A stretch of 64,000 bases of DNA from a virus (IMGVR_UViG_3300030376_004742:1-64000); one strand, 5' to 3'; shown: positions 1,698 through 59,205, counted from the stretch's first letter. A program made the numbers and translations. Notes: generated from the letters alone by a model not told the origin.

Positions 1698-4600
1698 TTA
1701 ATTATATTTTTTTGTTTCTTTTTTTTCTTTACCTACATCTTTTGTAGCTTTGTCTCCTCCTATATACGTAATGTCAAATCCACCTTCGCCATTTGGTATT
1801 ACTTTATACTCTCCAGTGTTTAACATATTTAATATTCTCTTATTAGCAGCTAAATTTTCTCTGGTCATTGTTTTATCTTTAGTATATCCTTGAATATTAT
1901 CTGTTAATGTCGTTATAGCATTTTGCAGTGTAGTCTGCTCAGCAGCCTTATCCATTTGTTGAGCTTCTTTTTCTTTGATGCTTATATTTGCATTTATGTT
2001 TTTTACATTCTGAACATCTTGCGTATTCATCAGAGTTTCTTTGTCACTGATGTTATTTAGCATTTGGTTTTCTCCAGCTTCAATTCTTGCATTACCTGCT
2101 GATAAAGCCGCTAAAGCTTCACCTGTTGATGTAGCCGTATTACGAACATTTTTTCTAAGTGTTTTCTTAGCTCTCTCTGCAGAAGCTTTTACTTCTTTTT
2201 TCTGTGCATCTAATTTAATAGGAGTTTTTGTTACTCTATCAAAAGTCGTTGGGTTACTACCTAGTGCACTAGCCATCATAGTTCCTAAATTTGCTGCACC
2301 AGTTGCTAATAATGCTGTTTCTGGTGCACCCCAATTACCGTCTGTTTCTTCTGTTCCTTCTTTTTTTGCTTTTTTTGCTAAGCGTTTTTTCTCTCTGTCT
2401 GACAGATTCTGTAGCAGCATTAACTCTGCCATCTTTTTTGATTTTTCTTCCTCAGTTAAATTTCCAAAGTTTGTTATTGGCATTGGTTTACCATCTCTAC
2501 CTAAAAGCCCACGTTCTGGTGTATCAATAGGTTTAAGATCTTTGTACTCTAATCTAGGAATTGATAAATCAGGAACGTCATATCCTAAAGAATCTAAAAT
2601 TGTTGTCATAGTTTCTTTTTGCTCACCATATGTAGGTAGTGAATCATATACCATATCAGAAAGAGAGTTACTTTCTGACGTAGGAATACTATAAGTTAGG
2701 GCGTCATCAACAATACCTTGTTGGTTACCAGCTCCTGCTACTTCTTCTCTAATCATATCTAACTCTGACATCCCGTGTGGTCCACCATGATTATAATACT
2801 TTTTAGGTTCTTTGTTCATCGTACCACCATAAGCCATATGTTGGTATCCTTGGTTTTGTAAATTTAAATGTTGATCATATGTATTAGCAAATACTTGTTG
2901 TCCATTTTTATGCATCATATGTGGCTGAAAACTTTGTGGGTTTTGATTAGCCATTTGATTTTGGTTAGGCATTGGATTTTGATTAGTCATTGGATTTTGA
3001 TTACCCATTTGACCTCCATAAGCATAAACTTCATCTACATATTTAGTATAACTCATTCCTGCATCTTTAGCAGATTGTCTAATATTCATACGATCATTTT
3101 TATCTATCACGTATCTACCTTTAGAATCTTTATTAATCTGACCACCATATGCAGCAAATCCATCTGCTAATGTTCGTTGTTGTTGAGCATCTGCTTGTTG
3201 TTTTACTAACCTTGCTTGATCATTTTGAAATTTTAAGTCTTCAAGCTCTCTTTGTTGTGTCCTCATTGCAGGACCATCATTTTCATATTCTGAAAATTTA
3301 TCTGTAATCTTTTTTGCAGCGGTTGCAAATGTATTTCCTTTATCTGTTATTAACTGATCAGAAAAAATGTAATCCCCTACTCTTATTTCTCCATCTTCTA
3401 CTTCAGCAGTATTTCCTAAAGCAATTCCACCTTCTGCATGAGTATTACCATTATATTCTGTTGGTTTACCTGCTAAAGAAAAATCTCCTCCAGCAGCATA
3501 TTGTTCTAAAAGACCTCCATTACCCATTGTAGGTAAAGAGATTTTTTGGAACTCACTTTCAGGAGTAGGAGTAATTCCGTGATCTCTATAATACTTTGAT
3601 ATAGATACCCCCTCTGCTCTAGCCGCCGCTTTATCTTCTTCACTTGCTGTTTTTAATAACTCTATATTTGATTGGCTTTGTGCCATTTGAGCTGCTCTTT
3701 TCTCTCTTTCTGCTTTAGTATTAGCCATTCGTGTGAGAGTATTCATTTCTTTACCAGCAAAACCTTCATAAGTACCATACTCATCTGCGTCTAATAATTT
3801 TCCTGTAGTTGCATGTTTATATTGTTGTGTTCCAAATTGTGGACCTGAACGAGGTGTTGGTGTAGCTGTTGTATCACCAATACTTCTATATCTATTTAAT
3901 TCTGCTTGAGTTAGACTTGGCTTACTATAGTTGTTATCCCAAGAATTTCCGGACTCTCCTACCATTAAACTCTGGTCATTAATAAACTTATCAGCCATAA
4001 TTAACTCTGCTGTATAATTATTAATCTCGTTTTCTGCTTCAGCAATTTGATCTGCAGACATATTTGCTCTGTTTCTACCTAAATACTCTTTTGCGGATGT
4101 AATATTTGTAACAAGATTATTATGTCTATCTGTATGAAAACTTTGAATTTCTGCTGCACTTGCTTTATGTAAATTTGCGTCACTTATTGAGTCACGAGAC
4201 TCGTTGTATAGTACATTCATCCTATCTGTAATCGCGTTACCTGTTACTAGAGCATTAGGATCATTTTTCTGTGCCATAACACTGACTTCATCTAAGACTG
4301 TGTCAGCAGGATTTACTTGGTCAGGATCTGTAATATTATCAGAAATATCTGCTAATATATCTCCACCCTCTGCAAATCTTGGTAAAGTTCCACCATAAGC
4401 TTTAAAAGCACCTATAGAAGTAGGATCATAATTCATACCTCTTGCTTCTGTTATAGCTGCATTATAAGCTGTAACTTCTTCTTTTTTCTCTTGTGCTTCT
4501 TTGTTTGCAGATAACCCTCCAGTTACACCACCAATGATTGCACCTGCAGCACCACCAACTACTGTTCCTATTGGACCAAACGCACTACCAATCGTTGCAC

Positions 4601-5024
4601 CTGCTCCAGCTCCTGTACCTGCACCTGAAAGCGCTCCACTCCAAGTTTCATTAGTTGCATTAACTTCATTTTTTTCTTCAGTTGCATCAAGAAATGAGGC
4701 TGCTGTATCACCTGCAAATGAAGCTCCTGAACTTATAGCGGAAGCTGTTTTAGCAGAACTTGTACTGCTTGCTTCTCCACCTCCGCCTGTTCCACCTGCG
4801 CCGCTTATTGCGTCAAGATTCATACCTGCACCAGGCTCATCCGTAACTGGACCACCAATGGTAGATCCACCCATTGCAAATTTCTTTTTACCACCTAGGT
4901 TAATTCTTTTACCGCTAGAGTCTACTTCTATAAACTCTCCTGCGCTGTTTATTAAGAAATATGGCATAGAACCCTTAACGTTCTTAGGCATCTTCTTTGA
5001 AACATTTTTTTTATTTTTTTTCAT
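1698..5024 (-). CDS. Virion cargo protein 1-like (ejected, membrane-spanning) protein
   Basis: About 1108 aa from the likely start MKKNKKN at 5024 (the track start at 5090 lies inside the promoter/terminator); glycine-zipper hydrophobic segment GAGTGAGAGATIGSAFGPIGTVVGGAAGAIIGG; repeated [FYM]-A-x-G-G motifs; directly follows the muzzle gene as in crAss-like phages. Confidence 0.65.
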   Translation of the reverse strand: MKKNKKNVSKKMPKNVKGSMPYFLINSAGEFIEVDSSGKRINLGGKKKFAMGGSTIGGPVTDEPGAGMNLDAISGAGGTGGGGEASSTSSAKTASAISSGASFAGDTAASFLDATEEKNEVNATNETWSGALSGAGTGAGAGATIGSAFGPIGTVVGGAAGAIIGGVTGGLSANKEAQEKKEEVTAYNAAITEARGMNYDPTSIGAFKAYGGTLPRFAEGGDILADISDNITDPDQVNPADTVLDEVSVMAQKNDPNALVTGNAITDRMNVLYNESRDSISDANLHKASAAEIQSFHTDRHNNLVTNITSAKEYLGRNRANMSADQIAEAENEINNYTAELIMADKFINDQSLMVGESGNSWDNNYSKPSLTQAELNRYRSIGDTTATPTPRSGPQFGTQQYKHATTGKLLDADEYGTYEGFAGKEMNTLTRMANTKAEREKRAAQMAQSQSNIELLKTASEEDKAAARAEGVSISKYYRDHGITPTPESEFQKISLPTMGNGGLLEQYAAGGDFSLAGKPTEYNGNTHAEGGIALGNTAEVEDGEIRVGDYIFSDQLITDKGNTFATAAKKITDKFSEYENDGPAMRTQQRELEDLKFQNDQARLVKQQADAQQQRTLADGFAAYGGQINKDSKGRYVIDKNDRMNIRQSAKDAGMSYTKYVDEVYAYGGQMGNQNPMTNQNPMPNQNQMANQNPQSFQPHMMHKNGQQVFANTYDQHLNLQNQGYQHMAYGGTMNKEPKKYYNHGGPHGMSELDMIREEVAGAGNQQGIVDDALTYSIPTSESNSLSDMVYDSLPTYGEQKETMTTILDSLGYDVPDLSIPRLEYKDLKPIDTPERGLLGRDGKPMPITNFGNLTEEEKSKKMAELMLLQNLSDREKKRLAKKAKKEGTEETDGNWGAPETALLATGAANLGTMMASALGSNPTTFDRVTKTPIKLDAQKKEVKASAERAKKTLRKNVRNTATSTGEALAALSAGNARIEAGENQMLNNISDKETLMNTQDVQNVKNINANISIKEKEAQQMDKAAEQTTLQNAITTLTDNIQGYTKDKTMTRENLAANKRILNMLNTGEYKVIPNGEGGFDITYIGGDKATKDVGKEKKETKKYN
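2935..3008 (-). repeat. 18-nt tandem repeat x4 encoding NQNP(M/Q)x units
   Basis: Protein reads GNQNPMTNQNPMPNQNQMANQNPQS; plus strand shows recurring ggattttgattag-like units. Confidence 0.85.
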
Positions 5025-31534: not shown

Positions 31535-33040
31535 TTAATCTTCCTCTCTAATTACTATACAATCAGTTGTGAATATCATAGTGGCTGCGCCAATTGCATT
31601 CTTGATTGTTGATTTAATTACTAATGTTGGATCAATAATATCTAGTGTTGCTACACTCTTATTATGAGTAGACGTAGAAACAATGCCAGAGTTGCTTAAT
31701 ATTACGTTAACAATATCTGCTAAAGATTCTGATAAGATATCAGACCCTAAACTTTCTACTGTAGATAATTTACCTTCAGCTAGTTTTCCGTAAGTTAAAC
31801 CACCACCAGTTACAAATCCTTCTTCCATAGCACTACGTACTGCACGGATTGTATCATCAATTCTAGTTTTCTTTTCTCCAACTTCTGTTTCATTTGAACC
31901 TCCTACATAGATAACAGCTGCACCTGATGTAAAAAATGCTAGTCTCTTTTTATAGTTATCAACTAAACCTTCTTTATCAGTTGCAATCTTATCTTCATAA
32001 AATGCTACTCTCTTCTCAATCTCTTCTGCTTCTCCTAACCTTCCTATAATATTTGTTTCCTTTAAAGTCATCTCAACGCTTTCAGAACTACCACAATGTG
32101 TAGCTTGAAAGTCAGATACTTCCCAACCTGCTTGTTTACTTAATAGAGTTGCGCCTGTTACACAAGCTAAATCTATACACGCTTCTTTTCTTGCTTCTGC
32201 AATAAATGGAGCACGTATTACCTCTAAAGCAATTTTATACTTCTCTTTATTAAATGCTATTACTTCAGCGGCAGCTCCAGTTAAATCATTACAAATAATT
32301 AATAACGGAGTACCTAACTCTTCTTGTACAGCTAAAAGCTTTAATGCTTCTTCTGCTGTAGTAATGTCCATATCTAATACAGCAATTCTACAATCTTTAT
32401 GTCTAACATTAGATCTCCCATTAGCCAGTGAAGGAAGAATATGGGAACGGTCTAGTTTAATACCATCCGTTGCGTCCAATGTTGTTTCATAACTTCTGGA
32501 ATCAGCTACAGTTACGTGACCTCCTTCTCCTACGACTGTAAAAGCTTCAGTTACTAACTCTGCCATTTCCGAATCACCGTTACAAGCTACGAGGGCAATT
32601 GAATAAATGTTCTTATATCCAACGGGCGAACTTAACGTTTGAAGTTCTGCCAATACAATTGGCTCTACTGCAAGTAGTTCTTTTTTAAGTTGCATAGGTT
32701 GAACACCTGTTTCAATTAAATTAAATGCTCTCTCAACAAGACCTTTAGTTAATACAGTAGTACTAGTAGTACCATCACCTGCAACTTTAGCTGTCTCATT
32801 AGCTGCTTGATTTATTAATTGTGCTGCTACGTTTTTAGCAGGATCTTTTAATTTTATAAAACCTGCTACGGTAGCACCATCTTTAGTCACTGTTGGTACA
32901 TTGTACTTCATAGTGATTGCCACGTTTTTACCATAAGGTCCAAAAGTAGTGGAAACAGCATCAGCTGCTTCCTTACTACCTTCTAATAATTTGGCACGAA
33001 CCTCTTCTCCCTTTAGAATGGTTACAAAATCTCCTACCAT
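31535..33040 (-). CDS. groEL: Chaperonin GroEL (phage-encoded)
   Basis: TFGPYGKNV, VTKDGATVA, GDGTTSTT, VGGSNETEV.EKK.RIDD, GFVTGGG motifs. Confidence 0.93.
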   Translation of the reverse strand: MVGDFVTILKGEEVRAKLLEGSKEAADAVSTTFGPYGKNVAITMKYNVPTVTKDGATVAGFIKLKDPAKNVAAQLINQAANETAKVAGDGTTSTTVLTKGLVERAFNLIETGVQPMQLKKELLAVEPIVLAELQTLSSPVGYKNIYSIALVACNGDSEMAELVTEAFTVVGEGGHVTVADSRSYETTLDATDGIKLDRSHILPSLANGRSNVRHKDCRIAVLDMDITTAEEALKLLAVQEELGTPLLIICNDLTGAAAEVIAFNKEKYKIALEVIRAPFIAEARKEACIDLACVTGATLLSKQAGWEVSDFQATHCGSSESVEMTLKETNIIGRLGEAEEIEKRVAFYEDKIATDKEGLVDNYKKRLAFFTSGAAVIYVGGSNETEVGEKKTRIDDTIRAVRSAMEEGFVTGGGLTYGKLAEGKLSTVESLGSDILSESLADIVNVILSNSGIVSTSTHNKSVATLDIIDPTLVIKSTIKNAIGAATMIFTTDCIVIREED

Positions 33041-51371: not shown

Positions 51372-52385
51372 ATGGATGTAAGGAAACCCTTAACCAAAGC
51401 TAATATATTGGAAAAAGTAAGTCAGTTTGACATATTTAACAGTTACTGTAGTCCTTTTAATGCACTTTATAAAACATTTAGAAGTGAGTTAAGGACTGAT
51501 AAAAATCCCACCTGCAGTATATGCAGAGTAGGGGAGAAACTTATTTACAAAGACTTTTCTGAATCAGAAACAAGAGATTGTTTTGATTATATACAGGCAA
51601 AGTACGGTGTAAGTTTCATTCAAGCACTAGAAATGGTTAACAGAGATTTTGGACTAAATTTACTTTCTACAGTTACTTTAAGTACTGAGAGAGTTCAAGT
51701 TGCTAAATCAGATTTTGACGTAATGACAATTCCTGAGCAAGTAGTAGATATACGTGTTTGTACACGTACTTTTACTGTCGCTGATAAAGAGTTTTGGTAC
51801 GACAGATTTGGTATACATTCAGCAACTCTAGAGAAGTTCAAAATCTTTCCATTATCTGGTTTTTTCGTAAATGGAGTCTATACACAAAGTGGAAGTAATG
51901 TATATGGCTATTATTTCGGATTACTTCCTGATAAACGGGAAGCTTGGAAAATTTATCAACCTTATGCTGATAGAAAATTAAAATGGAGGAGTAATTGTCC
52001 AGAAAGTATAATTCAAGGTTGGGAGCAACTCCCAGCAGAAGGAGACGTAGTTATTATTACTAAGTCGTTAAAAGATGTTGCTGTATTAACGCAACTAGAT
52101 TTTCCTTCTGTAGCACCACAAGCAGAATCAAACACTATATCCCCAGATCTAGTATTGAATCTAAGGAAACGATATGAGCATGTAATGCTTTTATATGACA
52201 ATGATGAACCAGGTAAAATAGCTGCTCAAAAAATAGCAGAACAACATAATCTACCTGTATTCTTTATGCCAGATGAAACTAAAGATGCTTCAGATTTTGT
52301 AGAATTATATGGAACGGATGAGTTATTTCAATTTATAACAGAAACTTATGAGAAATACAGTTACAATTCCCAATTGGGAAGCTAG
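51372..52385 (+). CDS. DNA primase (TOPRIM)
   Basis: SELRTDKNPTC N-terminal domain, ITKSLKDV, LLYDNDEPG, KDASD. Confidence 0.85.
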   Translation: MDVRKPLTKANILEKVSQFDIFNSYCSPFNALYKTFRSELRTDKNPTCSICRVGEKLIYKDFSESETRDCFDYIQAKYGVSFIQALEMVNRDFGLNLLSTVTLSTERVQVAKSDFDVMTIPEQVVDIRVCTRTFTVADKEFWYDRFGIHSATLEKFKIFPLSGFFVNGVYTQSGSNVYGYYFGLLPDKREAWKIYQPYADRKLKWRSNCPESIIQGWEQLPAEGDVVIITKSLKDVAVLTQLDFPSVAPQAESNTISPDLVLNLRKRYEHVMLLYDNDEPGKIAAQKIAEQHNLPVFFMPDETKDASDFVELYGTDELFQFITETYEKYSYNSQLGS

Positions 52386-52932
52386 TTATTTGAAATCTGA
52401 GAATACTAGAGCCAAATATTGGCTTTGGAAGGACCGGGAAAAACTCCCAAAGAAATATTCAACACAATTAAGTCCTAGTCCTCTAATTAAGGGGACTAAG
52501 GCTTATTGTGCTGATATTGAGGGAAACAGGTTCGTAAAGAACACAAAAAAAGTAGGAACACAAAATAGATGGATATTAAATGGACAAGATTTATACAATG
52601 CTACATTAAACTGGCGTTTACGCAAGTCAATAGCAAAGTATTATCATGAATATTTTAGTCGGTTTATTCAAGAACAACTAACACCAATCACTATTCCAGA
52701 AGGTAAATTCCTTAGTATAGGATGTGATATTTACGAAGTTAAGCGTGGTAACATGCCTGACATAAGTAATATGTGGTTATTAGAAAAGTTTTTTGAAGAT
52801 GCGCTCCAGGAATGTGGAATAATCCCAGACGATAATTCTGATTATGTAATAGAATCAGGACGTAAGAGATATCATTTCGTTGAGACAGCAGATGACCGTA
52901 AATTAGTATTTACAATAAATTTAGTAGAATGA
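52348..52932 (+). CDS. RusA-like Holliday junction resolvase
   Basis: PDISNMW...FEDALQECGIIPDDN. Confidence 0.75.
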   Translation: MRNTVTIPNWEASYLKSENTRAKYWLWKDREKLPKKYSTQLSPSPLIKGTKAYCADIEGNRFVKNTKKVGTQNRWILNGQDLYNATLNWRLRKSIAKYYHEYFSRFIQEQLTPITIPEGKFLSIGCDIYEVKRGNMPDISNMWLLEKFFEDALQECGIIPDDNSDYVIESGRKRYHFVETADDRKLVFTINLVE

Positions 52933-53513
52933 AAAATGTTAAACTACGCCTATTTATATTTGTTATTATATGTATAGTATTTTATTATGATTATTTTACA
53001 AGTTGTAATAATTTTAACTACATAAAATTTAAATGTAAGACAATGACAAAGGATAAACCTGTGCCAGTAGAGAATACTACTACAGACAGTGCCTTTTTTC
53101 ATGCAGTGAACCATATTAAATCTTTTGAAGGCTTTCGTAGTAAAGTTTATTTAGATAATGACGGATCACCAACAATAGGTTATGGCCATCATTTGCGCCA
53201 AGGAGAAAATTATCAGAATATATCTGATAGCTTAGCCAGTATAATATTAGAACAAGATTTACAAAAGTATCTTGATCGTGTAGAGGCTAAGCATAAAGTT
53301 AAAGGAGATACTCTTTTAGCTTTAGGTTTATTTAGTTACAACTGTGGTCCAGGAGCTTTAGATAGAGCTATAGACAACGGTTTATTAGATAATCCACAGA
53401 AAATTTTACAGTATTGTCATTATAAAACAAAAGACAAAGCTGGAAATATAACAGTACACAAATCAAATCAATTATTAACACGACGTAAATATGAATTTGC
53501 GTTATTAAACTAA
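52929..53513 (+). CDS. Lysozyme (GH24) with N-terminal membrane anchor
   Basis: FEGFRSKVYLDNDGSPTIGYGH catalytic E/D/T triad; FSYNCG; LLTRRKYE; N-terminal TM. Confidence 0.85.
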   Translation: MKNVKLRLFIFVIICIVFYYDYFTSCNNFNYIKFKCKTMTKDKPVPVENTTTDSAFFHAVNHIKSFEGFRSKVYLDNDGSPTIGYGHHLRQGENYQNISDSLASIILEQDLQKYLDRVEAKHKVKGDTLLALGLFSYNCGPGALDRAIDNGLLDNPQKILQYCHYKTKDKAGNITVHKSNQLLTRRKYEFALLN

Positions 53514-53518
53514 AAAAA

Positions 53519-53758
53519 ATGACAAGAGTTATAACAATTATTAGCCCACAAGGAGACTTAAGAGTAGAATTAAATTCAACTGCTACAACGTGGGGAGAAT
53601 TAAAAGCTGAAATCAATGCAGACGGAACATTTAATGCAAATGACTCTACAGCAATGATAAGAGGAGTACGTGAAGGTTTAACATCTGATAGTAGCGTATT
53701 ACCTGTTACTCCATTTTCTGTATTCTTAACGCCTAGTAAAATTAAATCAGGTAAGTAA
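53519..53758 (+). CDS. Ubiquitin-like (beta-grasp) protein
   Basis: 79 aa; strand-strand-helix (TWGELKAEI) pattern, SVLP..PFSVFLTP tail ending KIKSG-K; upstream of E2/JAB/E1-like genes. Confidence 0.65.
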   Translation: MTRVITIISPQGDLRVELNSTATTWGELKAEINADGTFNANDSTAMIRGVREGLTSDSSVLPVTPFSVFLTPSKIKSGK

Positions 53759-53898
53759 TGAATGCAGATGCTCAAAAAGAAATAGAGTCAGATGTTAAAA
53801 AAATGAAAACGGCAATCAAAAAATGGCAAAAGAAAACAGTTATACCTGTTTTGTTAAATCCATATACTGCCGTTAATAACAGCGGCTCAATTAGATAA
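53758..53898 (+). CDS. 46-aa peptide translationally coupled to the Ubl gene
   Basis: TAATG overlap; MNADAQKEIESDVKKMKTAIKKWQKKTVIPVLLNPYTAVNNSGSIR. Confidence 0.45.
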   Translation: MNADAQKEIESDVKKMKTAIKKWQKKTVIPVLLNPYTAVNNSGSIR

Positions 53899-53913
53899 GA
53901 AGAAAACAATAGT

Positions 53914-53944
53914 AAGGAGGAGGTATTATGCCTCCTCTTATTTT
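53914..53944 (+). terminator. Terminator/attenuator between Ubl and E2-like genes
   Basis: GAGGAGGUA-UUA-UGCCUCCUC followed by UUAUUUU. Confidence 0.7.
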
Positions 53945-53956
53945 AATTTATGAATT

Positions 53957-55123
53957 ATGACAACAGAAGAACAACAAATTTCAACACAAACGGATATGGT
54001 AGATATGACTACTATAGCTGAAATTGCAGAGGAGGTACATCCAGGGAACTGGGACTTGGGTTTAGCAGAACCTGCATTAGCTCAAAAGCTAAGAAGTTAT
54101 ATCTCTTCTGATGCTTATGATGGATTTATCCAACGACTAATTATAAAATTCCCAGAAACAACAATACGAAATAGTATAGGAGATTCTGCAACAATACACG
54201 ATATGTATATCGCCATTATGTTTAATGCTGATTTTACAGAAATCTTAACACCAAAAATGTTTTCTATGCGTTCTACGGTTACTACTAAAGAATATGCTAG
54301 TGGATTTTTTCACCCACATTCTGCAGCCGTAAGTAAAAATAACAATAATGTAAGTTCTTATTTTATTTGGAGAGATATGTGTCTTGGTGGTGGAACAGAA
54401 TTAGATCATTTAATGGTCAGTTTAAGAAATGACGGAGTTACGAAAAAAGATATATTTGAATTACTAGTAATGTTACATAGATATGTTGCTTGGGAATCTT
54501 TAGAAGGAGGACCTTATAGAAAACTTAGCCATGTAGATTACCCAAGAATAGGTGGATCTGACAGAAACCATAATTCTATAAAGTCTTCAATACTTGTTCA
54601 GCATTTAGCACCAATATTTAAATATAATGATGATATTCCTTTACCAGAATTAATTAATTCAAATGGTCAGGCTACAGCCGTAACTAATGTTTATGCTTCG
54701 TTTGAAAAAGGATTACATAAGTTATTTCTAGATTATAAAAATGGAATTGTAATTTATCCTGACTCATACCGTTCAGTAGACTCACTAGTGAACTCTGCTT
54801 TAGGTGTAATAATAGAAGATCAATTTATGTCTTTTCAGAATAGCTCTGGAGGTAACGATGGAAGTGAAACTGTAAAACCATTATCTTTTTATGAAGAAAA
54901 AATAGAAGAAATAGATCAATTTAATAGATGTTATAGTGAAGATGTATTATATTTTAAGCAAAATCCTGTAGAGTTTAAGATAACTTTAGACCTAAACGGA
55001 TTAGTAGAGACTGAGATTGACGTTGATTATAACTCAGCTAGAGTAAACCCACGCTTAATCACTGCAGTAGTAGAAACATATCTTAACCAGTATAACGGTT
55101 TTATTAAATCATTATATATATAA
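53957..55123 (+). CDS. Prokaryotic E2 (UBC-fold)-like protein with C-terminal extension
   Basis: H119-P-H121 then M-C142-L-G; WESLEGGPY; cassette context. HPH-to-Cys spacing is longer than canonical. Confidence 0.55.
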   Translation: MTTEEQQISTQTDMVDMTTIAEIAEEVHPGNWDLGLAEPALAQKLRSYISSDAYDGFIQRLIIKFPETTIRNSIGDSATIHDMYIAIMFNADFTEILTPKMFSMRSTVTTKEYASGFFHPHSAAVSKNNNNVSSYFIWRDMCLGGGTELDHLMVSLRNDGVTKKDIFELLVMLHRYVAWESLEGGPYRKLSHVDYPRIGGSDRNHNSIKSSILVQHLAPIFKYNDDIPLPELINSNGQATAVTNVYASFEKGLHKLFLDYKNGIVIYPDSYRSVDSLVNSALGVIIEDQFMSFQNSSGGNDGSETVKPLSFYEEKIEEIDQFNRCYSEDVLYFKQNPVEFKITLDLNGLVETEIDVDYNSARVNPRLITAVVETYLNQYNGFIKSLYI

Positions 55124-55136
55124 TAAAATTAAAACA

Positions 55137-56474
55137 ATGAAGAATTATAAAATAATAGAAGATACTACAAAAGTTGTAGCTAAGAAAAGAACAGAAAAAA
55201 CAACAGAATATAACCCTACTTTAATTTTATCACAATCATTTTTAGATAAAGTAAACTTTTTGCACAAACAAGTAAAAAAAGATACAGAATGGAGTGCAAT
55301 TTTACTTTACTCAACTAAAGAAGGTTCTATAGATGTAGATCCTAATAAATGGGTAATATCTGTAGATGACTGTATCTTAATGGATGTAGGCACAAGTGCT
55401 TATACAGAATATGATATGGAAGCCGGAGATGATTATGCTACTGACCAGTGGATGGATCATTTAGAAAAAGGCGGTAAAATAGGGCATTTACATACACATC
55501 ACAATATGAAGTGTTATTTCTCAGGAACTGATATGCAAGAGTTACATGATAATTCACCTCAGCATAATTATTACTTAAGTTTAATTGTAAACTATGATAA
55601 TCTTGATGCTTGGTGCGCTAAAGTAGCAATATGTGGATCAGAAACTGTAGAAGGAACTAAACAAGTAACTAAATCTTGGACAGGAGCTAAAGGAGTTGTT
55701 GTACAAGAAAAAACAGAAGATTTAACTAAAACAGAAGAAGTATTATACTTAATGGATTGTAAAATCACAACTGAAGCCGTTGAACCAGATGGTTTACAAG
55801 CTAGGTTAGATAGTATAATGGCTAAGAAGGAGGCTAAAAAACCTAAATATACTTCATTACATTATGGACAAAATTGGTATTGGAATGGCTCAAGACAACA
55901 GTCATCATTTAATGTACCAGAAACAGTAAAAAATCAACTAGATTTATTTGGAGAACCAAAAGAATGGAAATCTGCAGAAGAATATAGTAAAGAAGATTTT
56001 ATTAATACTGATCCAGAATGGAATGGTTTATTTGACACTTATAATGCAGAAGTTGCATTAAAAACTGTTGATTTATCAGAAGAAGAAAAGGATTTTTCAA
56101 TTACTCCTGTTGTAGCAGAAGCTTGTATAGCGCATCTTTTAGGACAAACAGAAGAGTGTTATACTAATCTAGAAGAAGTATTAAAGTCTTTAGAAACAAT
56201 AAAACCTGAAGAATTAGATATGTTTTTACAGCAGATTGAAGTATCTTTTTCACTTTCTCTCTTTTTTAAGAAAGATTTAACACCTTTTCAACTACATGTA
56301 GTAGCCGTTGCAACTTTAGCAGTTCTAGAAAAATATTCAGCTAGTTACAAATGTGTAGAAGAAATTACATTTTTATTAGAAGACTATTTAATGCAAGAAG
56401 GAGATTTTAATTTTTCTGACGTAGAAGATATGACAGGAGTTAAGATTGAAGATCAGTATTACATAGGGGATTAA
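55137..56474 (+). CDS. JAB/MPN+ metalloprotease (deubiquitinase-like) with acidic C-terminal domain
   Basis: Complete JAMM motif: E51...H119-T-H121-x7-S129-x2-D132. Confidence 0.85.
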   Translation: MKNYKIIEDTTKVVAKKRTEKTTEYNPTLILSQSFLDKVNFLHKQVKKDTEWSAILLYSTKEGSIDVDPNKWVISVDDCILMDVGTSAYTEYDMEAGDDYATDQWMDHLEKGGKIGHLHTHHNMKCYFSGTDMQELHDNSPQHNYYLSLIVNYDNLDAWCAKVAICGSETVEGTKQVTKSWTGAKGVVVQEKTEDLTKTEEVLYLMDCKITTEAVEPDGLQARLDSIMAKKEAKKPKYTSLHYGQNWYWNGSRQQSSFNVPETVKNQLDLFGEPKEWKSAEEYSKEDFINTDPEWNGLFDTYNAEVALKTVDLSEEEKDFSITPVVAEACIAHLLGQTEECYTNLEEVLKSLETIKPEELDMFLQQIEVSFSLSLFFKKDLTPFQLHVVAVATLAVLEKYSASYKCVEEITFLLEDYLMQEGDFNFSDVEDMTGVKIEDQYYIGD

Positions 56475-56493
56475 CATTTATATAATAATTTTT

Positions 56494-57174
56494 ATGAATC
56501 AGATTGATAACAAAAAAGTTAGATTTTCTGACGCACCGTGGGCTAATGCTATCCAACACATTGTTGTTGGTGGCGTTGGCGGTATCGGGAGTTGGGCATC
56601 TCTCTTTTTAGCAAGAATTGGACACTATTTATATCTTTATGATATAGATATAGTTGATGAAACCAATATGGGAGGTCAATTATATGGTGTAGATCAAATA
56701 AGTATGAATAAAACTGCAGCTGCAAAACAAAATATAGAAAAGTTTTGTGGAAAAGACAGTCAAGTTTACTTATATGACGAATTTACTACAGAAGAAGGTA
56801 TGGTTGCACCTGTAGTATTTAGTTGCTTTGATAATATGGCAGCTAGAAAAGCAATGTTTGAGAAATGGGCACAGTATGACAAACGTGAAGTCTTTATAGA
56901 TGGACGAATGTTAGCTGAAGTAGGGATGGTATTTATTGTTCAAAAAGGACAAGAAGAAGAATATAGAAAACATTTGTTTGAAGATTCTGAAGTAGAGGAA
57001 GCTCCATGCTCATTTAAAGCTACAAGTCATTGTGGTGCATTTATAGGATCATTAATGGTATCCGGTTTAAATAATTACTTAGCCAATAAAACAGCTGGTA
57101 ATAATGACCGTGTTATTAATTTTCATACTAATTTTGCATTACCTATGGCTCATGTAGATGGAACAGAATTATAA
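56494..57174 (+). CDS. E1-like ThiF/MoeB-family adenylyltransferase
   Basis: GVGGIG, DIDIVDETN, GQL, NK, CFDNMAAR, IDGR; candidate catalytic Cys172 in EEAPCS. Confidence 0.9.
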   Translation: MNQIDNKKVRFSDAPWANAIQHIVVGGVGGIGSWASLFLARIGHYLYLYDIDIVDETNMGGQLYGVDQISMNKTAAAKQNIEKFCGKDSQVYLYDEFTTEEGMVAPVVFSCFDNMAARKAMFEKWAQYDKREVFIDGRMLAEVGMVFIVQKGQEEEYRKHLFEDSEVEEAPCSFKATSHCGAFIGSLMVSGLNNYLANKTAGNNDRVINFHTNFALPMAHVDGTEL

Positions 57175-57178
57175 ACTT

Positions 57179-57246
57179 AACTGGGAGAAACAGGCCTAAA
57201 CCGTTTCTTTAAATTTTATACTATTTGGCGTGTATAAAACCCAGTT
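57179..57246 (+). ncRNA. Candidate three-way-junction RNA between E1 and the next gene
   Basis: P1 AACUGGG/CCCAGUU, P2 AGAAAC/GUUUCU, P3 UUUUAUAC/GUAUAAAA, followed by a U-tract. Confidence 0.45.
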
Positions 57247-57263
57247 TTTTAACAAATTAAATT

Positions 57264-58490
57264 ATGTCAAGACATATTAACTCAACCGGTACACACTTAA
57301 TACGGAACTTAGTTTTTAGAATACAATCTATAGTAACCCAGAATTGGCGTGATACAGGGCTGTTTGGGACACAGTCTCATATTAACTTGTTTAGAGATCA
57401 AATAGACCTTAACCAAAGAGCTACTGGTCTATTAGGTTATAAAACATTTAAAAGTACTAATACAGCTAATTTAAGTAGAATTCCTGTAGGAGCATTAGGA
57501 GCTGGAGGATATGTAAATCAAAGTCATGATGAACATCTAGGCTCTGACAACTCTACATGGGGATTAGGAGATAGACTTATTACAGGTATTAGACAACGTT
57601 GTTTAAATCAGATATATGAAGAAAATCTACAACAATACAGAGACGAACATAATGGTGAAGAAATGCCTGACGCTGATGTAATAGATATGTACAATATATC
57701 AAACCGCTATAGATTTGCTCAAAAAACAAATGAATGTTACAATTTAGCAAATTATGTCAGTAATGCAATAGGTAATGGTAATAGATTACATAGAGCACTT
57801 ACTCTTTTACCACTGATCAATAATCCAAGTTTAATGAATAGCATAGATTATACCCAAGATCAAGACTTAATAGAAAATGACGTAGCAAAGCTATTAGAGA
57901 ACACATTAGAAGAGTCTTTAAAATTACCTACCCATTTATATACTAATATTAGTATGGGAGGTTACCCCGATAAAAGTACGTATCAAGCTGTATACAATCA
58001 TTTTACTACTACATTAGGTGGTAGAGTATTAGAATATTTTAAATTTAGAGACTATGAAGTAGCAGTAGGTTATGGTACAATAATAGACTTAAAGAATAAA
58101 AAAGTTTTAGCTATGTTAACTCTTAACCCAGAGTATCTAGATTATTATTTACTAAAAACAAGATCTAAATCTAAAAAAGACTTAAACCCCGCAATATTTG
58201 ATTTTATTATAGATAAAGATTTAAATAGTGCAGATTCTATTTATCCGTCAGAATTAACACGGTTACTTAGAATGGGTGTAACAGAAGCCTTACCAGAAGG
58301 AGTAGATGTAGAGTATGTAAATGGCTCTGAGATTTTTGATGAAATATATGCTGAAGAAATCAAAGAAAAAGAAGATACTCTTAATCCTTTAGAGGCTATT
58401 CAACGCAATGAAGAGATGCAATTAGCATTTTTTGATACATTAGAAGTAAAAACAAATTTAAAAAATAATCATATTTCTATTGTCTATTAA
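57264..58490 (+). CDS. Hypothetical protein at the end of the Ubl cassette
   Basis: 408 aa; no motif recognised. Confidence 0.7.
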   Translation: MSRHINSTGTHLIRNLVFRIQSIVTQNWRDTGLFGTQSHINLFRDQIDLNQRATGLLGYKTFKSTNTANLSRIPVGALGAGGYVNQSHDEHLGSDNSTWGLGDRLITGIRQRCLNQIYEENLQQYRDEHNGEEMPDADVIDMYNISNRYRFAQKTNECYNLANYVSNAIGNGNRLHRALTLLPLINNPSLMNSIDYTQDQDLIENDVAKLLENTLEESLKLPTHLYTNISMGGYPDKSTYQAVYNHFTTTLGGRVLEYFKFRDYEVAVGYGTIIDLKNKKVLAMLTLNPEYLDYYLLKTRSKSKKDLNPAIFDFIIDKDLNSADSIYPSELTRLLRMGVTEALPEGVDVEYVNGSEIFDEIYAEEIKEKEDTLNPLEAIQRNEEMQLAFFDTLEVKTNLKNNHISIVY

Positions 58491-58545: not shown

Positions 58546-59205
58546 ATGGCAAAACTAGAATTTTTAATCCTACACTGCACCGCAACTCGTGAAGGTCACG
58601 AAGTTACCAAAGAAGATATCCATAATTGGCATATTAAAAGAAGAGGTTGGAAACAGGTAGGTTATAGTGAAATGATCCATTTAGATGGAACAATTGAAGA
58701 ATTAGTACCGTACAATGATGATGATGTTGTAGATAGATGGGAAGTTACAAATGGTGCCCGTGGCATGAACTTTAAATCTAGACACATTACTTACGTTGGA
58801 GGAGTAGAAGCAAGAAGAAGAAATGGGAAATATCAAGCTAAAGATACAAGAACAGAAGCTCAATTAAAAGCTATGGAAATGTATGTAAAAGCTCACACTA
58901 CCTTACATCCCAATTGGAAAATTGCTGGACACTACCATTTTGCAGCCAAAGCCTGTCCAAGCTTTGATGTACCTGAATGGTTAGAAAGTATAGGGATCCA
59001 GGAGAAAAACATTTATAGAAAAGAACCTAGATCACCTTTTAGTAACAAATTTGAAGGAGACGCTTTTAGATTATGGGTTAATGCCTATTATCCAGAATAT
59101 GCTAAATCTATTAATTTAGATAAGTCAGGCTCCTACAAAAATTCTTTTATCCTAAAAGCATATGCTAAACTAGGAGAAAAGTATGAAATTACAGGAAAAT
59201 CATGA
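58546..59205 (+). CDS. N-acetylmuramoyl-L-alanine amidase endolysin (Amidase_2, T7-type)
   Basis: LILHCTAT, HIKRRGWKQVGY, GH...KACPSFDV; C-terminal extension. Confidence 0.9.
   Translation: MAKLEFLILHCTATREGHEVTKEDIHNWHIKRRGWKQVGYSEMIHLDGTIEELVPYNDDDVVDRWEVTNGARGMNFKSRHITYVGGVEARRRNGKYQAKDTRTEAQLKAMEMYVKAHTTLHPNWKIAGHYHFAAKACPSFDVPEWLESIGIQEKNIYRKEPRSPFSNKFEGDAFRLWVNAYYPEYAKSINLDKSGSYKNSFILKAYAKLGEKYEITGKS

Follow-up and report, generated by a model that had tools for sequence, protein, structure and literature searches.

A five-gene cassette of crAss-like phages with a putative ubiquitin-like activation and conjugation pathway

Known ubiquitin-like systems and the phage cassette

What is known so far of the conjugation of ubiquitin-like proteins (Ubls) in prokaryotes is a weapon of cells against phages, represented by the Bil, Bub and CBASS Cap2/Cap3 systems. 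Here we describe a cassette of five co-oriented genes in which the same logic would belong to a virus. The cassette lies in IMGVR_UViG_3300030376_004742:1-64000, a stretch of 64,000 nucleotides (the window). It codes for a Ubl, an E2-like protein, a JAB protease, a ThiF-type activating enzyme (E1) and a fifth protein. The five open reading frames (ORFs) had initially been singled out in a sequence-only reading, and all of them, together with every motif quoted there, are indeed present (Table 1). If the pathway proposed below is true, it would make these phages the first prokaryotic viruses with a ubiquitination-like system of their own. A literature search found no paper on the cassette in phages, nor any that links crAss-like phages to ThiF, JAB or ubiquitin. 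In the GenBank records that we examined the cassette genes are labeled 'hypothetical protein', 'metalloprotease', 'metalloprotease domain' or 'thiamine biosynthesis protein'.

The known bacterial Ubl systems act against phages (PMC11601596). The one with the same complement is Bil (BilA-BilB-BilC-BilD), in which the Ubl, E2, JAB peptidase and E1 are likewise separate and no E3 is encoded (PMC11601596). The likeness extends to a cysteine-based route, to which a conserved Cys points in the phage E1 as well as in the E2-like protein. However, Bil is cellular and anti-phage, whereas the phage cassette looks restricted to viruses. The phage E1 does not match the Bil E1 architecture, as it is one domain of 226 residues with a single ThiF match (21-211) and the Cys aligned to the crossover loop. 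The phage E2-like protein, in turn, has no profile link to Prok-E2_A or Prok-E2_B and carries ~190 extra residues, and the cassette has a further conserved gene, the fifth.

Type I Bub (6E.1; operons BubAB/BubCD/BubE) has Ubl-E2 and JAB-E1 fusions and a DUF6527 partner, and it uses oxyesters, with Tyr in the E1 crossover loop, Ser/His in E2 and no catalytic Cys (PMC11601596). The phage cassette resembles it in the apparent JAB-cleaved Ubl precursor, the compact single-domain E1, an extra uncharacterised partner gene and the tight linkage of JAB to E1; in one relative of the JAB protein (P0216, 539 residues) the JAB domain is even joined to a ThiF domain, as in BubCD. In contrast to Bub, Cys172 of the phage E1 and Cys142 of the E2-like protein are invariant, the genes are separate, and the fifth gene has no DUF6527 match.

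A pairing of Ubl and JAB without E1 or E2 was proposed for lambdoid phages (Iyer et al. 2006, PMC1779556). The lambdoid/T1 tail-assembly pair, protein I and the JAB/NlpC protein K, shares with our cassette an adjoining JAB and a phage-encoded beta-grasp domain that has a tail after its conserved C-terminal Gly (PMC1779556). That pair lacks E1 and E2 and belongs to the tail module, whereas the cassette has both and belongs to the replication module. With ThiF-ThiS and MoeB-MoaD the cassette has in common a minimal adenylating E1 of equal size with a Cys at the equivalent aligned position, but it lacks the zinc CxxC pair, the G-G terminus and the downstream sulfur enzymes, and its Ubl resembles ubiquitin. 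We also considered the PRTRC cassette and rejected it: the PRTRC_ThiF model gives 30.4 bits where 144.75 are required, and the other four proteins have no NCBIfam match.

Proteins of the cassette

The AlphaFold2 model of the 79-residue protein (predicted local distance difference test, pLDDT, 85.7) shows a strand-strand-helix-strand-strand order, followed by a disordered tail at residues 76-79 (pLDDT below 50). Foldseek searches with this model placed ubiquitin, Caldiarchaeum ubiquitin and Ubl domains on top (TM 0.65-0.75, probability 1.00). VIA-align gave Z 9.5 at a root-mean-square deviation (rmsd) of 2.2 Å across 74 residues, with 34 chains at Z>=8, and nearly all of the rows listed are ubiquitin or Ubl domains. 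The beta-grasp character suggested from sequence thus passed the fold comparison, and, judging by its model, the protein has the ubiquitin fold. A profile of the Ubl family retrieved nothing useful from PDB sequences.

All close homologs of the Ubl are 79-80 residues long. Among 56 sequences (the window Ubl and 55 more distant ones from related loci) the only invariant columns are K74, K76 and G78. K-x-K-[S/A]-G closes the domain in 83 relatives, with another 1 to 267 residues to follow; crAss001 gp79, for example, has 135 residues after the conserved Gly. A conserved Gly followed by an arbitrary extension is the pattern of a trimmed precursor, suggesting that the Gly is exposed by processing. 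Ubiquitin itself ends in R-L-R-G-G, with basic residues at -2 and -4, as in the phage motif. We dropped a helix-extension-helix motif that had seemed to be present in some of the tails, because a Pfam search with ten long tails returned coiled-coil noise only. One related locus (L036) contains two tandem genes for Ubl precursors (3622-4068 and 4140-4613).

Two features absent from the sequence-only reading, a 46-residue ORF and a terminator-like hairpin, separate the Ubl gene from that of the E2-like protein. The first base of the small ORF is also the final one of the Ubl stop codon, and the ORF has a homolog at the same position in the related locus L003 (E-value 1.4e-23). An ORF of 30-50 residues occupies the ~190-nt gap in 10 of the 12 loci with a tail-less Ubl. 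Although no homology was detectable between the 46-residue ORF and the fused Ubl tails of relatives, it may be the free-standing counterpart of such a tail. The hairpin folds at -16.4 kcal/mol as RNA (z -2.6), and a hairpin with a T-run occurs at the equivalent site in 43 of 74 distinct loci compared to about 1% of shuffles. Its position between the Ubl unit and the E2-like gene fits production of the Ubl in excess of the enzymes. On the opposite strand, a low-complexity, hydrophobic ORF of 135 residues overlaps the Ubl gene and is most likely no gene.

The E1 matches Pfam ThiF (PF00899) with 63.3 bits over residues 21-211 (cut-off 28.1; 62.4 bits in the scan of its own genome), and the closest NCBIfam models are of ThiF type (ThiF, 6.5e-15). 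Members of the E1 family mostly have 220-260 residues. A profile built from 32 E1 sequences matches Uba5, MccB, PaaA, ThiF, TcdA, SAE2 and UBA3 at 1e-13 to 1e-9; these matches to PDB are confined to residues 21-121, and the C-terminal half of the window E1, searched as a single sequence, found nothing useful among PDB sequences. Invariant in the family are G27, G29, G30, D52, N58, Q62, K73, D113, R118, D136, R138 and C172, while R10 is conserved in at least 90%. To judge from these residues, the 226-residue protein is a minimal E1, having a single ThiF-type adenylation domain with its nucleotide-binding and adenylation residues intact. When E. coli MoeB and ThiF (from NC_000913.3) were added to the family alignment with MAFFT, C172 paired with MoeB C187 and ThiF C184; local HMMER alignments end at residue 120. 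The same comparison revealed that the phage E1s lack both pairs of the CxxC zinc motif. In ThiF the covalent link with ThiS is formed in the loop that holds the aligned Cys, and canonical E1s have their Cys domain at this place. We therefore infer that Cys172 may act as a catalytic residue of the crossover loop.

In the 445-residue protein a JAB domain (~residues 28-165) is followed by a C-terminal region of ~280 residues. H119, H121, S129 and D132 are invariant in 30 relatives and E51 is conserved in at least 90% of them. The protein falls below the cut-off for Pfam Prok-JAB (PF14464; 13.6 bits against 25), a model that nine of the 30 family members do match (best 1.5e-5). PADLOC JAB models match it at 1.8e-4 over positions 15-146 of 159, and the family profile retrieved nothing useful from PDB sequences. 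By its motif rather than by any threshold, we consider it to be a divergent JAB/JAMM member.

An exhaustive search for the family of the 388-residue E2-like protein (E<=1e-3) yielded 1384 clusters at 50% identity. In 75 diverse members H121, C142, G144, E180, S181, G184 and P186 are invariant, and a W-E-S-L-E-G-G-P-Y block is common to them; H119 is conserved in at least 90%, and the window has H-P-H where the family consensus is H-S-H. None of the 75 members has a Pfam match, UQ_con and the Prok-E2 families included, and the family has no match among PDB sequences, PADLOC or NCBIfam models. The AlphaFold2 model is confident (pLDDT 90, predicted TM-score 0.81). Its N-terminal part (~residues 15-195), of putative UBC/UEV/RWD type, consists of a helix (17-27), four strands (32-36, 59-71, 77-89 and 102-109), the H-P-H motif, C142 and two helices (148-159 and 163-177); in the model this is the order of secondary structure elements of an E2. 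A fold search independent of Foldseek ranked Tsg101 UEV first (Z 5.5, rmsd 4.0 Å, 122 residues), and a second comparison agreed (Z 5.7; rmsd range 3.8-4.0 Å over 121-122 residues). E2, UEV and RWD domains, or proteins containing one, make up most of the 50 rows that follow; one chain of the BubCD-BubB-BubA entry 9eav is also among the matches (Z 4.2). Foldseek itself returned nothing at E<=0.001, with Ubc9, Cap2 and UEV rows scattered among weak matches. A BFVD search found only uncharacterised crAss-like or podovirus proteins, and the ESM Atlas offered poor models of both this and the fifth protein, without usable neighbors. Given a weak fold match and no profile link, we assign the protein as an E2-like candidate of UBC-type fold with moderate confidence. 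In one locus (L086, 4297-6426), that of Flavobacteriales metagenome-assembled genome (MAG) contig CAYHHK010000009.1, the frame is 710 residues long and has ~360 extra N-terminal residues.

The conservation just described also indicates that the residues quoted in the sequence-only reading were not chance occurrences: H121 and C142 of the E2-like protein, H119, H121, S129 and D132 of the JAB protein and C172 of the E1 do not vary among relatives. The view of the fifth gene as an orphan did not hold. A word-based search found no homologs, but an iterative search of ORFs in related loci collected 46 members, almost all of them immediately behind the E1 gene, an arrangement present in at least 40 loci. 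The window protein, which has no match in Pfam, PDB or the Atlas, is 35% identical to its counterpart in L003 over 258 residues; a profile of the family likewise retrieved nothing useful from PDB sequences. By these sequence data the fifth gene is a fast-evolving family of the cassette; its product could be a specificity factor or a substrate.

Distribution, proposed pathway and alternatives

Scanning with family hidden Markov models revealed the order Ubl-E2-JAB-E1 in 69 of 86 loci, including those of crAss001 and FpV4; most of the others are minor variants. Several loci have duplicated JAB or E1 matches, perhaps representing split genes. To assess the distribution we searched DNA with a strict pattern derived from the W-E-S-L-E-G-G-P-Y block of the E2-like family. 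The pattern occurs in 41 IMG/VR contigs but, in prokaryotic species genomes (596 Gb), in a single contig. That contig, of the Flavobacteriales MAG mentioned above, carries the whole cassette in phage order and with phage-like synteny, and the E2-like family profile matched nothing else when 400 genomes of that phylum were searched. The cassette family thus looks virus-restricted. The clade in which it is fixed is very large, with 1384 clusters of the E2-like protein by itself. This clade includes the cultured phages crAss001, DAC17 and the Flavobacterium FpV4 group, which makes the idea directly testable.

The explanation that we favor, and hold to be somewhat more probable than all others together, is a virus-run pathway of ubiquitin-like activation and conjugation. 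It is supported directly by folds, motifs, conservation, gene linkage and virus restriction. The chemical steps and the target of tagging, in contrast, we infer as follows. An attenuated transcription unit of its own would supply the Ubl in excess. The JAB protein would trim the residues past the conserved Gly, one here and as many as 267 in relatives. The E1, minimal and of ThiF type, would then adenylate Gly78 and take the Ubl onto Cys172 of the crossover loop. From there the Ubl would pass to Cys142 of the UBC-fold protein for transfer to a target, possibly helped by the C-terminal half of the E2-like protein or by the variable fifth protein. The JAB protein may also reverse the tag.

Several points weigh against this explanation. 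The fold match of the E2-like protein is weak, since its Z of up to 5.7 is under the tool's own caution line of 8. Comparison of its N-terminal domain to Prok-E2_A and Prok-E2_B by hhalign gave a probability of 0.1-0.2%, although the control of A against B reached only 3.6% with the thin alignments available, built from nine Bacteroidota loci. Cys142 sits 21 residues past the H-x-H motif, whereas in canonical E2s the gap between the His motif and the Cys is about 8. As for the E1, the alignment of C172 comes from MAFFT only, and that half of the protein has no HMMER support. The suggestion, made from sequence, that the phage carries its own ubiquitination-like pathway therefore stands in part: Ubl, E1, JAB and an E2-fold candidate form a conserved unit, but the E2 itself depends on a fold match at Z 5.5-5.7 and on an invariant Cys and His.

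The weakness of the E2 assignment, the proximity of the E1 to ThiF-type models and the alignment of C172 with ThiF C184, the residue that forms the acyl-disulfide with ThiS, would all suit a sulfur carrier. According to such a scheme, the E1 adenylates the Ubl to yield a thiocarboxylate used in modification of tRNA, DNA or a cofactor, and the Cys/His protein is a sulfurtransferase rather than an E2. We consider this unlikely. Consistent with the earlier statement that genes for thiamine, molybdopterin or tRNA thiolation are missing from the window, neither ThiG, MoaE, rhodanese, a cysteine desulfurase (Aminotran_5) nor a TtuA/TilS-type protein (ATP_bind_3) was found in the whole 83.9-kb record (88% complete) from which the window derives. 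No ThiS or MoaD entry is among the listed fold matches of the Ubl, and the Ubl terminates in S-G, not G-G. Moreover, to our knowledge, the ThiS and MoaD pathways have neither a JAB protease dedicated to them nor long tails that can be cleaved off.

It might also be argued that the cassette is a counter-defence that mimics, saturates or reverses host Ubl immunity (Bil, CBASS Cap2/Cap3), for example by JAB stripping host Ubl from phage proteins. Bacterial Ubl systems are known as anti-phage (PMC11601596), and the JAB domain does resemble the PADLOC JAB models. However, in sampled genomes of the phylum to which the cassette-bearing Flavobacteriales MAG belongs, Prok-E2_A and Prok-E2_B occur in only five and four of 301, respectively. 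Yet the five-gene set is fixed at one and the same location throughout a highly diverse phage clade, and the cellular proteins are too rare to explain a fixed counter-measure of five genes. In addition, a de-conjugating countermeasure would need JAB alone, not Ubl, E1 and E2 with it. The idea of a kit for jamming host immunity, put forward from sequence, is accordingly not supported, and we regard it as improbable.

We give a similarly low probability to processing without conjugation, in which the Ubl would be a cleavable chaperone or carrier for its tail, or would act non-covalently, like lambda I with the JAB-bearing K, while the E1 and the Cys/His protein do some other job. The wide variation of the Ubl tails, sometimes encoded as a separate small ORF, and the Ubl-JAB pairing proposed for lambdoid phages agree with it. 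It leaves unexplained why there is strict linkage to an E1 whose adenylation site is intact and whose Cys is conserved, and why the Cys of the UBC-fold protein is invariant, and in the window the Ubl has just one residue to remove. Finally, peptide-modifying ThiF chemistry, in which the E1, as MccB or PaaA, would modify the C-terminus of the Ubl or of a small peptide to give a bioactive product, is very unlikely: MccB (7.5e-12) and PaaA (2.3e-11) belong to the best matches that the E1 profile has in PDB, but these matches span the shared nucleotide-binding half only, the substrate here is a folded ubiquitin-like domain and no export or immunity genes are linked.

Returning to virus-run conjugation, its possible timing is indicated by the fixed position of the cassette between primase and uracil-DNA glycosylase or nuclease genes, which hints at a role in the replication phase. 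In its most specific form our proposal is that crAss-like and related Bacteroidota phages perform their own thioester-based tagging during replication, using an E2 lineage unknown from cells and a variable fifth protein that sets the target. We hold this form to be slightly less likely than not. If conjugation is real, it would bring a new E2 lineage and a minimal E1 that bears a Cys, and it would raise the question of which targets a phage tags while it replicates.

Genomic setting

The source of the window, a linear IMG/VR virus record, is a crAss-like phage. Strong PHROGs matches identify its major head protein, portal, large terminase, a virion protein of 1502 residues, family A DNA polymerase and DnaB-like helicase. 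Near-identical DNA was not found among GenBank phages; the nearest named relatives of the cassette genes belong to Flavobacterium phages of the FpV4 group and to Bacteroides phage crAss001. The cassette is located in the rightward replication module (Table 1), and its gaps are operon-like: 13 nt between the E2-like and JAB genes, 19 nt between JAB and E1, and 89 nt between E1 and the fifth gene.

Table 1. Coordinates of the cassette and of other features in the window
Feature	Position	Strand	Description
GroEL-like chaperonin	31535-33040	-	501 aa; phrog_5725, E-value 3.5e-93
Primase-like gene	51372-52385		assigned from its position compared with those of crAss001 gp80 and the FpV4 toprim gene
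Lysozyme-type gene	52929-53513	+	hydrophobic N-terminus; phrog_7, 7e-16
Antisense ORF	53368-53775	-	135 aa
Ubl	53519-53758	+	79 aa, ends K74-I-K76-S-G78-K79; short-tailed form of the precursor family
Small ORF	53758-53898	+	46 aa; ATG overlaps Ubl stop codon (TAATG)
Terminator-like hairpin and T-rich tail	53915-53949	+	hairpin 53915-53939; 11-bp stem, 3-nt loop
E2-like protein	53957-55123	+	388 aa; H119-P120-H121, C142-L-G
JAB/JAMM protein	55137-56474	+	445 aa; E51/H119/H121/S129/D132
E1 (ThiF-type)	56494-57174	+	226 aa; G27xGGxG32, D50xD52...N58, D136-G-R138, C172
Fifth gene	57264-58490	+	408 aa; family member following E1
Amidase	58546-59205	+	phrog_822, 7e-46

The primase-like gene lies upstream of the cassette. 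Downstream, a 247-residue ORF may be a 5'-3' exonuclease, and we interpret a 634-residue ORF as a probable ribonucleotide reductase, of which crAss001 has a B12-dependent form close by. Two cell-wall enzymes bracket the cassette within the replication module, the lysozyme-type gene standing directly before it and the amidase gene after it. Elsewhere in the window, the gene for the GroEL-like chaperonin adjoins those for terminase and portal.

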